A DNA stretch of 13,819 nt from a virus (lineage: Duplodnaviria; Heunggongvirae; Uroviricota; Caudoviricetes), in IMG/VR virus record IMGVR_UViG_2534681934_000027. One strand, written 5' to 3'. The position numbers are program-made. Position 1 is the first letter of the stretch. Each line of letters opens with the position of its first letter. This document shows, one piece after another, positions 1 to 3,000 of this stretch.

Positions 1-3000
1 ATGAGCAGAGCACTTAACAAACTGAGCGATACACAGCTGAGGAAAATCAACGGCACACCCGCCCAAAAAACAGCCTTTCTTAATGACGGTGGAAACCTGA
101 GCGTCAGGCATTCAACCAGTGGCCTTTTAACCTGGTATTTCACTTACAGGGCCGGAACGGGAAGGGGGGCACCACCGGAACGCATTAAGCTGGGAAATTA
201 TCCTGATCTGAGCCTGAAATCAGCCAGGGAAAAAGCCGCCCAGTGTCGCGCATGGCTGGCAGAGGGGAAAAATCCACGTCATGAGCTTAATTACACCGTA
301 CAGGAAGCGTTAAAGCCGGTAACGGTTGGCGATGCGCTCACCTACTGGCTTGAGTCGTACGCAAAGGAAAACCGCGTGGATTATGCCGCCCTGAAAAAGC
401 GCCTTAATAATCACGTAATACAGCACATTGGTGCTATGCCGCTGGATAAATGCGAGCTACGGCACTGGCTGGCCTGTTTTGACCAGGTGGCAAAGCGAAC
501 GCCTGTTACTGCCGGATTCTTGCTACAGACGTGCAAACAGGCGCTTAAGTTCTGCCGGAGGCGGCGCTATGCAATCAGCAACGTTCTTGATGATATGAGT
601 GTGGCGGACGTTGGGAAAAAACCGGATATAAGCGAGCGTGTCTTAAGCACCAAAGAACTGGGCGAATTATTGCAGGCACTGGACAAAAAAATATTCTCCC
701 CCTACTACATCGCGTTAATCCGCCTCCTGATTGTGTTCGGATGCCGGACGGTAGAACTGAGGTTATCGGAGATCAGCGAGTGGGATTTTACCGAAATGCT
801 CTGGACCGTTCCGAAGGAGCACAGCAAAACGAAGGTAGCCATATTCCGGCCTATACCGGAAGCAATACTGCCGTTCATCACGCAGCTGGTGGAGCAGAAC
901 AGGCACACGGGCTTATTGCTGGGGGAAGTGAAACAGGAGGCCAGCGTATCGCAGTATGGAAGATTAGCGCACAGGAGGCTTAATCACCCTCACTGGTCAC
1001 TGCATGACATCCGGCGCACCTTTACAACCATGCTGAACGATTTAGGCGTTGATCCGCATGTCGTGGAGCAGCTTACAGGCCACCAGATGCCAGGAATGCA
1101 GCGAGTTTATAATCATTCCCGTTATCTGGATGCGAAACGCAATGCGCTGGATATGTGGACGGAGCGGTTAGGGATACTGGCGGGAACACATGAAAACGTA
1201 ACCACGCTACCAGTAGCCAGAAGAAAATAATTTTTTTCGTGTTTTTTCAGTATGCGCATACTGGATATGCGAACAGATACAACGTGCAACAATGAGCAAC
1301 AATGAGCAACAATGTGGAACAACTACGAACAAGAGGCGAAAAAGCGTACGGATTTATAAGTAGCTGATTTTTAATGTGTTACTGGTTTTTTATACACTAG
1401 CGAATCACTCTTTAAAGAGCGAGAAAAAAGGCATGGAACAATATTTTATGCCTTTGTATTAACATGAATTTAAAAGATTTTATTCTTACTTTTTCATTTT
1501 CTGTAAATCATACATCCTCAGTATTTGCCATTCATCACTCTAGCGGGAACAATACGACACAATAAGACACCTGATGACTCTTTAAGAAACGAAAGGGGGC
1601 AATAGTGTTAAGCACTGATCGGTTTATACGTGAAAAAGAATGCGAAAAACTAACCGGCCTTAGCCGTACGTGTCGCTACCGCCTGGAAAAGGCCGGACAA
1701 TTCCCATCACGTCGTAAACTTGGCGGTCGTTCCGTTGGCTGGTCTTTATCCGAGGTTCTGGCCTGGAAGGATAGCTGCAAGGCAGTTCATTAATCACGCT
1801 GGCGGCACACAGCCGCCACACATCAATCATCTGAACACAGAGCTATAACCATGAAGATTGAATATACGCCAGAACGTGGGCGGGGATTCGTTCGCCCTGG
1901 TGAGACTGGAAAACCACAAAATTGGGGTTTTTCAGGCATAAAAAAAGCGGCCCCGAAATGGAGCCGCCTTTCTGAACAGATAACCCGCTGCGCCTTATGT
2001 GTATATGATCCCAAACATAAGCACGGGGATGATAGCCGCTATCAGGCTGGTGGGCAATGCTATCAGTCTGGTTCAGTTCGTTGCCATACCTGCAATGGGC
2101 GCGTTTCCCTGTACTCTTTAAGGAATTGCTCAAGGGCAAAAGCACATGGCGCGAATCTTTCTGATTCATGCTCTATCTTTCTGCGCCGTCTTTTCCGTGC
2201 CGGTGATAATGTTTTGGTCAATTCTTTATCGGTCATTGTGTTGTCCTGCATAGCAATGCGCCGTAATACCTCACACCACGGCGCTGATAGTTTTTATCCT
2301 TTGGGTTCTATGCCGCGTTGCTGTAATTCTTTGCGGAGAACGCGTTTAATCCAAGTGGCTAAAGATGTGTCGCCATCGGCCTTAGCAGCTTCTTCTAGCT
2401 GCGCTCTGAAGTCTTCCGGTAATCGCATTTGGTATGGAGGCGAACGTTTTTCTAATGGTGTTGACATGGTAATTACCCTTTATTGCTATACCTACATGGT
2501 AATTACCATTGTACTTGCCATTACACAAAAATCAACGCCCCGCAGTGCTGGGAACACATACGGGGCGTCTAACCAACAACGTAAACTAGGAGCCGTTATG
2601 GTTGCCGTAAATCATATACCACACCTTGTACACACACAAACGGCCTTTGTGTGGCGTTTTCTGGCACTGAGTGCCGGAGAATCTCAAATCATCCACGTAA
2701 CCGCCTGGACGGAACGCGAAGCGCGTAACCGTTGCCCGTCCGGTTGTGTTGCTGTATTTGCCGCCCGTATTCGTCAGGAGGTGCGCCATGATTAATCTGT
2801 CACTTACTGACCTTAACCGCATTCAGTTTCGTGAGAAATTCACAGGGCAGCTACTGGTCAATGTGGATAAAGGTCGCGTGGTGTGTAATTACCACTTACC
2901 AGATGAAGCAATTGTCGCCACAAGGGAATCATTACAGGAAATCACAAAACGTGCCGGAATGATTAACACGAATATTCAGGGGATGCTTTATGCACAATAA

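Follow-up and report, generated by a model that had tools for sequence, protein, structure and literature searches.

What keeps the replication genes of a Gram-negative phage-inducible chromosomal island (PICI) silent while the island rests in the chromosome of its host? AlpA, which the helper phage switches on and which then activates genes downstream as well as its own promoter, is required for the induction of these islands; a global repressor was called "unclear", and the difference from the Gram-positive islands "a mystery" (PMC6092414). The AlpA-only model was repeated later, and in 2025 AlpA was still presented as the master regulator, with no repressor mentioned (PMC11773190, 10.1101/2022.09.08.507074). 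Another account (PMC10111431) also has AlpA as the sole master regulator; its "dynamic zone", the stretch that separates alpA from the replication genes, carries C4/isrK-type RNAs in some islands, and neither the protein nor the antisense RNA considered here is described there. The question is raised anew by a DNA stretch of 13,819 nucleotides, IMG/VR record IMGVR_UViG_2534681934_000027 (in the following, the window), in which an unannotated gene for a small ribbon-helix-helix (RHH) protein diverges from the replication operon. The mechanism which is proposed below, an Arc-like RHH repressor of a Gram-negative PICI acting together with an antisense RNA, is one that we favour with some reserve, on the grounds of sequence comparisons.

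The RHH open reading frame (ORF; coordinates of all features are given in Table 1) was compared with relatives in other genera. Nonsynonymous divergence was low (pN 0.09-0.31) at saturated synonymous divergence (pS 0.7-0.96), and therefore the ORF is a real gene under constraint, i.e., under purifying selection. Homologues (n = 93; 56-98% identity, nearly all with 54-62 amino acids) were found in Enterobacterales, Pasteurellales (Pasteurellaceae), Aeromonadales and Orbales (Orbaceae). In PHROGs the protein matched phrog_228, "Arc-like repressor" (E = 1.5e-6). An AlphaFold2 model of the single chain showed an extended N-terminus and helices at residues 18-31 and 36-50, with a mean predicted local distance difference test (pLDDT) score of 77; the top 50 Foldseek matches to it were almost all RHH proteins (AmrZ, Arc, NikR, CopG, PutA, VapB, ParD and RHH domains of antitoxins), with single E-values of about 1, as is expected for a domain this small. 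The hhalign register placed RSPPYQMRLPEDF (PPYQMRLP) on KMPQFNLRWPREV of Arc (PQFNLRWP) and on DDPHFNFRMPMEV of Mnt (PHFNFRMP), which pairs residues P/Q11, Q13 and R15 with Q9, N11 and R13 of Arc and with H6, N8 and R10 of Mnt. R15 was invariant in 34 sequences, and the three Arc residues are those which we take to be the base-contacting ones. On the model and this register we accept for the 57-residue protein a predicted RHH fold of beta-strand, helix and helix. A preliminary description of the window had named an Arc/Mnt-like protein at this place, transcribed away from the replication operon, and both points were borne out.

The same description had singled out two 14-bp sites, 30 bp apart, overlapping the promoter and the start codon of the RHH gene. 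The sequence ACATGGTAATTACC is indeed present as two exact copies (2464-2477 and 2494-2507; 30 bp from start to start). When up to two mismatches were allowed on both strands, four matches were obtained where 0.06 would be expected, a number reached by none of 200 shuffles. Each 14-bp copy contains the palindrome GGTAATTACC, the core of the putative operator boxes. The two boxes lie within a pair of promoters facing each other, with predicted starts about 5 nt apart: P_L, which would serve the RHH gene, and P_R, which would serve the icd-like gene and the replication operon. Neither P_R, which holds the operators, nor the adjacent antisense RNA had figured in the preliminary description. Box 2 fills the 17-bp spacer of P_R between TTGACA and the -10 hexamer, and the TTGACA itself is the reverse complement of codons 1-3 of the RHH gene (TGTCAA). 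As to the overlap claimed earlier, box 1 does cover the predicted start site of P_L, but it only abuts the -10 hexamer without overlapping it, and box 2 abuts the ATG. In both promoters, that of the target and that of the regulator itself, core elements are overlapped by the cognate boxes, as would be expected of operators.

This arrangement was followed through 60 loci from species-representative genomes, plus several others. The layout of boxes and promoters in the 130-bp divergent region was conserved, though neutral sites are saturated. The palindrome of box 2 stands at -11 from the RHH start codon in almost every locus, and that of box 1, of a type specific to the respective family, is found 41-46 bp upstream of the RHH start in nearly all of them, 30-34 bp from box 2; palindromes at -11 and at -41 to -46 were seen in about 50 distinct loci of more than 15 genera. 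The -35 hexamer of P_R was TTGACA without mismatch in 57 of 58 distinct loci, and wherever it reads so the RHH serine codon is TCA (57 of 58 loci). For the -10 hexamer 4-5 of six positions matched in most loci, at a spacing of 17-18 bp (TATGAT, TATTAT, CATAAT and others). A pattern of TTGnnT-16/18-TAnAAT was present at the position of P_L in most loci with a QYQMRL-type protein and was weaker in other clades.

Moreover, the sequence of the boxes co-varies with the beta-strand and the N-terminal arm of the protein, while the helices are invariant. Proteins with ..KRSP[QP][YF]QMRL are paired with TGGTAATTACCA (core GGTAATTACC), those with ..KTDQYQ[IL]RL with TTGTAATTACAA (also given as TGTAATTACA), those with ..KRSPQFPMRL with GGTATATACC, and those with ..RGNPPFQFRL with GTGTAATTACAC; a change of the box centre from AATT to TATA coincides with a change from Q13 to P at the central position of the strand.

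A natural exchange of alleles bears on the same point. Between the window and EcCICFT073, the island of strain CFT073, identity amounts to 88% in the int-alpA region and to 97% in the small ORF behind the RHH gene, while the segment 2287-2753, which extends from the RHH stop codon through operators and leader into most of the icd-like gene, has no similarity. The slot of the RHH gene is taken in EcCICFT073 by a regulator of YlcI/YnfO type with 59 residues, and this allele has a repeat of its own, GTGGGCCACACCT, once in the spacer of TTGACG-18-TATAGT and once across the start site. Since the boxes change with the small regulator while int and alpA stay, the sites travel with the regulator, and not with int or alpA. 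Judged from these sequences, the operator logic is alike in two different alleles, a pattern which is seen in phage immunity regions. The earlier proposal that the palindromes are RHH operators is thus supported by positions kept across about 60 loci, by co-variation and by this exchange, and the RHH protein is very probably a DNA-binding protein recognising the two boxes.

The YlcI/YnfO (DUF3950) allele resembles the RHH gene in its slot, common to EcCICFT073 and many E. coli PICIs, in its divergence from the icd-like gene, in being followed by the same small ORF, and in a weak N-terminal similarity (NCBIfam E = 0.0014); it differs in its operators and in its family. Homology of the two regulators was considered and rejected at an hhalign probability of 1.4%, and they are treated as different families. 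A literature search returned nothing relevant on YlcI/YnfO/DUF3950, nor on Icd-like proteins in connection with antisense. In E. coli RM9975 (locus L069, 3754-5395) tandem cassettes were found, an RHH gene with an antisense-RNA motif being followed by a YlcI/YnfO allele with a second motif; the arrangement has the appearance of an intermediate in recombination by which alleles are exchanged at the conserved RNA/icd-like segment.

Three further observations concern the boxes and the gene itself. A third copy of the box with one mismatch (TGTAATTACC) is located at 2884-2893, within the gene that comes second in the rightward operon; by chance one would expect about 0.34 copies of this kind. Motifs which the alpA promoter region shares with the switch (GTAyTTGCCATT; GTAAATCATA) were not kept in relatives and were set aside as chance. 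In Photorhabdus (loci L039-L043) a single locus contains two RHH genes, separated by about 1.2 kb; the terminator hairpin of the second copy has several C.A mismatches, and that copy may be decaying.

Just upstream of the -35 hexamer of P_L lies a GC-rich hairpin (SL2 in Table 1) with compensatory changes in 10 of 11 pairs; 93.6% of the cells in this terminator helix were paired, a value reached by none of 500 shuffles. Between it and the icd-like start RNAalifold gave, together with the hairpin, three helices of 21 pairs, 14 of them with compensatory changes, namely a closing helix GCCA/UGGU, a stem-loop with CCUC/CUCC in the loop, and the terminator hairpin with its U-rich tract. G.U pairs (95) were far above A.C pairs (6), and therefore the structure appears to be selected on the minus strand, on which 95.8% of the cells are paired; a plus-strand reading gives 82.5%. 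The fold of the predicted RNA of about 75 nt has -33.6 kcal/mol (z = -3.8). Its predicted promoter is marked by TAnnnT exactly 7 nt before AGCCAT in all 35 distinct loci (e.g., TATAAT, TACAAT, TATGCT or TACTAT). The hexamer is kept in spite of differing icd-like residues at this place, and one invariant T stands at a third-codon position. With a predicted promoter of its own, a structure conserved on the antisense strand, an intrinsic terminator and complementarity to the ribosome-binding site, the natural reading is a cis-antisense RNA which would block translation of the first gene of the operon.

A covariance model of this RNA (R1) found one copy in each PICI switch region examined, including that of EcCICFT073 (52 bits) and alleles without an RHH gene, and nothing convincing in 49 kb of the CFT073 chromosome including its lambdoid helper prophage. 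Rfam had no family at the switch region at gathering score, nor at E values up to 5 in 1200-3100, and its C4 and isrK covariance models did not match. At 2633-2662 on the plus strand a terminator-like hairpin with a T-run lies within the icd-like coding region and overlaps the antisense -35 hexamer; its conservation in relatives was not apparent. Sequence comparison supports, therefore, besides the gene and the RHH fold, the positions and co-variation of the operators, the geometry of the promoters, and the structure and strand of the RNA.

Table 1. Positions of the putative switch and of neighbouring features in the window
Feature	Position	Strand	Remarks
RHH ORF (Arc-like), proposed repressor	2294-2467	-	57 amino acids, MSTPLEKRSPPYQMRLPEDFRAQLEEAAKADGDTSLATWIKRVLRKELQQRGIEPKG
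Operator box 1 (putative)	2497-2508, core 2498-2507		TGGTAATTACCA; spans predicted start sites of both promoters
Operator box 2 (putative)	2467-2478, core 2468-2477		GGTAATTACC; in P_R spacer, abuts RHH start codon
P_L, leftward promoter of RHH gene (predicted)	2508-2535	-	-35 TTGATT 2535-2530, 16 bp, -10 TACAAT 2513-2508; start ~2501 (consensus scan)
P_R, rightward promoter to icd-like/replication operon (predicted)	2461-2489	+	-35 TTGACA 2461-2466, -10 TGCTAT 2484-2489; start ~2496
Predicted cis-antisense RNA, ~75-80 nt	2606-2525 (~2604 to 2528)	-	covers icd-like ribosome-binding site and start codon
Antisense RNA, stem-loop SL1	~2603-2571	-	anti-Shine-Dalgarno CUCC in loop
Antisense RNA, stem-loop SL2	2569-2535	-	terminator hairpin, then U-tract 2534-2525
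Antisense RNA promoter (predicted)	2639-2611	-	-35 TTGTGT 2639-2634, 17 bp, -10 TATGAT 2616-2611; inside icd-like codons 5-7
Small basic protein	2063-2236	-	57 amino acids, arginine-rich N-terminus and one helix; downstream of RHH gene
Intrinsic terminator of RHH/small-ORF transcript	~1973-1938	-	14-bp stem and U7, -28.1 kcal/mol, z = -2.7
int	1-1230		
alpA	1605-1793	+	Pfam Phage_AlpA E = 5e-17; convergent with RHH operon
icd-like gene	2598-2795	+	NCBIfam phage_ICD_like E = 5e-18; opens rightward operon

From these features we infer binding, repression, action of the antisense RNA and an override upon induction. RHH dimers would bind the two palindromes of 10-12 bp, 30 bp apart inside the opposed promoters. 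A dimer on box 2 would block the spacer of P_R, which would drive the icd-like gene and then DUF4222 and the helicase replication genes, and a dimer on box 1 would cover the starts of both P_R and P_L. With the boxes occupied, the replication operon should be silent in the resting island and the synthesis of the repressor itself should be limited; the RHH protein is probably such a repressor of P_R with autoregulation. The antisense RNA of about 75 nt, which would be constitutively promoted and carries an anti-Shine-Dalgarno sequence in a hairpin loop, could act as a second lock and block icd-like translation on transcripts that had escaped. Upon induction the helper phage would switch on AlpA, which would have to override the lock, perhaps through transcription running on from alpA into the convergent RHH operon, perhaps through direct activation or with the aid of an anti-repressor of the helper phage. 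That the RHH module is the quiescence or immunity switch of the island is a tentative reading. The island master switch of the preliminary description, with SaPI Stl as its analogue, is likewise tentative, as published work has AlpA as the required activator of these islands (PMC6092414, PMC11773190). Still more tentative is its full form, according to which Gram-negative PICIs would possess an immunity-like switch made up of small repressors whose alleles can be exchanged (the RHH family, or YlcI/YnfO types in EcCICFT073) along with the operators belonging to each in a strong replication promoter, and of a conserved antisense RNA family absent from Rfam, a functional counterpart of SaPI Stl which helper-induced AlpA would override, e.g., by convergent read-through.

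Several results weigh against the proposal. The RHH protein stayed below the thresholds of two curated profiles, with 14.3 bits for Pfam Arc PF03869 (cut-off 20.4; E = 0.038) and 18.7 for NCBIfam YlcI_YnfO_N (curated cut-off 30; E = 0.0014); strict membership of the Pfam Arc family is thus not established. A profile search of the Protein Data Bank gave AmrZ at E = 0.63 next to designed helical repeats, which are spurious matches, and it is not counted as evidence. No obvious tetramerisation domain is present by which sites at a distance of 30 bp could be coupled. Box and protein have changed together about four times at the level of clades, and this co-variation is confounded with phylogeny. 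In the window itself the -10 hexamer of P_R, TGCTAT, is poor (three of six positions) and among the weakest, and an IS3 element sits within terS in this copy of the island, so that the switch may be idle here. Finally, over-expressed AlpA alone induces EcCICFT073 without helper phage (PMC6092414); a repressor must therefore be one that AlpA can override, and it may be a mere modulator.

The last result also speaks for a different view, in which RHH protein and antisense RNA are copy-number or homeostatic regulators that damp the replication operon only after induction, the silence of the resting island being due to the lack of AlpA. Plasmid pMV158 has this design, with the RHH repressor CopG and the antisense RNA RNAII, the latter directed at the ribosome-binding site of a replication operon, and the autoregulatory geometry would fit. 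AlpA is necessary and, when over-expressed, sufficient for the induction of EcCICFT073 (PMC6092414). However, P_R is near consensus in most relatives (TTGACA-17-TATGAT/TATTAT) and would be expected to be active even in the absence of an activator if no repressor acted on it, and the swapping of alleles with matching operators is more like phage immunity regions than like copy-number control; homeostasis is thus considered unlikely. The palindromes might instead be sites of another protein (AlpA or an excisionase, an integrase through arm-type sites, a replication initiator), with the RHH protein acting elsewhere. AlpA is a DNA-binding regulator encoded 700 bp away, but int and alpA are about 88% identical to those of EcCICFT073 while the boxes change fully with the small regulator gene. 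In the window the boxes are found only beside the RHH gene, apart from the one-mismatch copy at 2884, and their type follows N-terminal and beta-strand residues of the RHH protein, all of which makes another binder very improbable. A relic, intact in sequence and of no more consequence in a decayed O157 island, would agree with the IS3 insertion in terS (9868-11081), with the weak -10 hexamer of P_R and with the partial capsid module. It appears quite improbable, since the RHH region is 100% identical, with the gene intact, in many O157:H7 genomes, and the conclusions for the family as a whole are independent of this copy.

The preliminary description had also offered a toxin-antitoxin pair, with the RHH protein as antitoxin and the small basic ORF downstream as toxin; as a type II pair the two would stabilise the island. 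Such an ORF exists and its product is basic; its start is probably the second ATG at 2236, with AGGA as Shine-Dalgarno sequence, and not 2251 as given there, because homologues begin at 2236 and this start keeps a constant distance of 57 nt from the stop codon of the upstream regulator. A transcript common to this ORF and the RHH gene is predicted. The gene order, antitoxin before toxin, and the autoregulatory palindromes at the promoter would suit a toxin-antitoxin system, and in some databases homologues are labelled "HicB family antitoxin". Homologues of the small ORF (n = 38) were, however, restricted to E. coli or Shigella, and none was found beside the RHH gene in 60 loci outside these taxa, nor in the Xenorhabdus, Pasteurella and Yokenella contexts. 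The ORF stays 97% identical while an unrelated allele replaces the RHH gene, and it sits 57 nt behind whichever regulator is present, RHH or YlcI/YnfO (DUF3950), equally well. The two genes do not overlap, and the RHH protein is without the C-terminal toxin-binding extension which is typical of RHH antitoxins. The model of the small protein consists of a disordered basic, arginine-rich part and a single helix (residues 24-45; mean pLDDT 69), which is too simple for a fold search, and no toxin fold or family, nor any other match, was obtained in Pfam, in the anti-phage defence library PADLOC or in the Protein Data Bank. All this makes a toxin-antitoxin pair hardly credible. The small ORF is under purifying selection (ratio of nonsynonymous to synonymous rates, dN/dS, 0.13-0.6; indels in frame) and corresponds to phrog_21027 in PHROGs, function unknown. 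Its product begins with an arginine-rich stretch, SPARKRRRRK, which may be likened to the RNA-binding arginine-rich motif of the lambda N protein; our guess would be an accessory RNA- or DNA-binding peptide.

The terminator which had been noted behind the small ORF on the same strand was confirmed. On the plus strand its fold is weak (z = -0.8), and Rfam gave weak terminator-like matches at 1936-1971. Its orientation is towards alpA, and transcripts reading through from there may be hindered by it as well.

The window belongs to a well-known type of island. Its positions 1500-3100 are 100% identical to many E. coli O157:H7 chromosomes, with the island inserted between roxA and phoQ; EcCICFT073 has the same site and gene order, with 82-97% identity along long stretches. 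By this comparison the window is an O157 relative of EcCICFT073, the model Gram-negative PICI. It contains int and alpA, a replication module (DUF4222 with primase/helicase, SSB), PerC and capsid-like genes at a prophage-free site, and as a PICI it places the present finding in the regulatory region of such an island. AlpA is a known PICI activator and excisionase-type regulator (PMC6092414, PMC11773190). Downstream of the icd-like gene follow DUF4222 and then a RepA-type helicase (3982-5382), SSB and PerC (operon annotation from strain TR01); a lambda-E-like capsid gene, a head-decoration gene and the interrupted terS are also present. The IS3-family element has an ALIL frameshift pseudoknot at 10684-10800 (Rfam), and its exact junction with terS was found in none of 5426 complete E. 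coli genomes. Between int and alpA, at 1279-1328, there are 4-5 tandem repeats of 10 bp (ACAATGAGCA and variants), which may be integrase arm-type sites or binding sites of AlpA/excisionase.

The order int/alpA, RHH gene (leftward), then icd-like gene, DUF4222 and primase/helicase (rightward) is kept in E. coli and Xenorhabdus. In Pasteurella multocida the RHH gene likewise diverges from the primase operon and alpA is convergent, with int at the far end. Yokenella (L002 / L003) has only a degenerate version of the locus, in which the RHH gene adjoins SIR2_2 or AAA_13 genes of defence-like appearance; these neighbours fit the idea of defence cargo in the dynamic zones of PICIs. RHH homologues occurred on 58 IMG/VR contigs, mostly of 8-17 kb, and were nearly absent from GenBank phage records, and therefore the family belongs to satellites. 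The sole close GenBank phage match, "Pasteurella phage Pmp8" (OR544139.1; 15.3 kb, RHH homologue with 79% identity), is probably a PICI deposited as a phage.

Both small genes on the minus strand are omitted from the PGAP annotation of O157:H7, which has in their place a plus-strand "Icd-like" pseudogene, equivalent to 1851-2444 of the window. An open frame of 314 codons (1851-2795) runs on the plus strand antisense to the small ORF and the RHH gene and continues in frame into the icd-like gene; the pseudogene was made from the first part of this frame and so hides two real genes. In the portion searched of the Sakai small-gene supplement neither small peptide was found.

Similar designs are known from other elements. 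In immI of phage P22, very small RHH repressors (Arc, Mnt) act on closely opposed promoters with operators inside promoter elements and with autoregulation, and a short cis-antisense RNA, sar, which controls ant, lies over the ribosome-binding site of its target; the beta-strand described here aligns with those of Arc and Mnt. The differences are that the icd-like/replication operon of a satellite would be controlled here, and not an antirepressor gene, that there is one repressor instead of two, that the similarity to Arc is weak, and that two separate palindromes 30 bp apart take the place of one tetramer site of 21 bp. In pMV158/pLS1 a replication operon is likewise under an RHH repressor, CopG, which was among the Foldseek matches, and an antisense RNA (RNAII) at the translation start. 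There, however, copG is co-transcribed with repB, while here the RHH gene is divergent and the satellite is integrated and induced via AlpA and a helper phage; the RNAs have no sequence homology. The C4 RNA of P1 immI (C4 - icd - ant) and the CI RNA of P4 also stand immediately upstream of an icd-type first gene. They come from the strand that also encodes their target, by processing of the leader, whereas the RNA predicted here is antisense with a promoter and a terminator of its own, and the Rfam models C4 and isrK do not match it. With SaPI Stl/Rpr the RHH gene has in common its place between integration module and replication operon, its divergence from the latter, and the diversity of alleles. 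Stl proteins are larger, of the helix-turn-helix class and relieved by binding helper-phage proteins, so that the fold class differs. Gram-negative PICIs, moreover, depend on AlpA as an activator (PMC6092414).

An RHH repressor with an antisense RNA is thus a familiar kind of element; as a swappable switch in Gram-negative PICIs it appears to be undescribed within the literature searched. The module is present in the model island EcCICFT073, too, as a different allele. If the RHH protein is a repressor, this would explain the silence of a near-consensus replication promoter and could underlie immunity or incompatibility among islands residing in the same cell, an E. coli genome having up to five places that match. 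It would also supply orthogonal pairs of repressor and operator for PICI-based delivery vehicles. The antisense RNA would represent a new family of satellite RNAs, extending from Enterobacterales to Pasteurellaceae.

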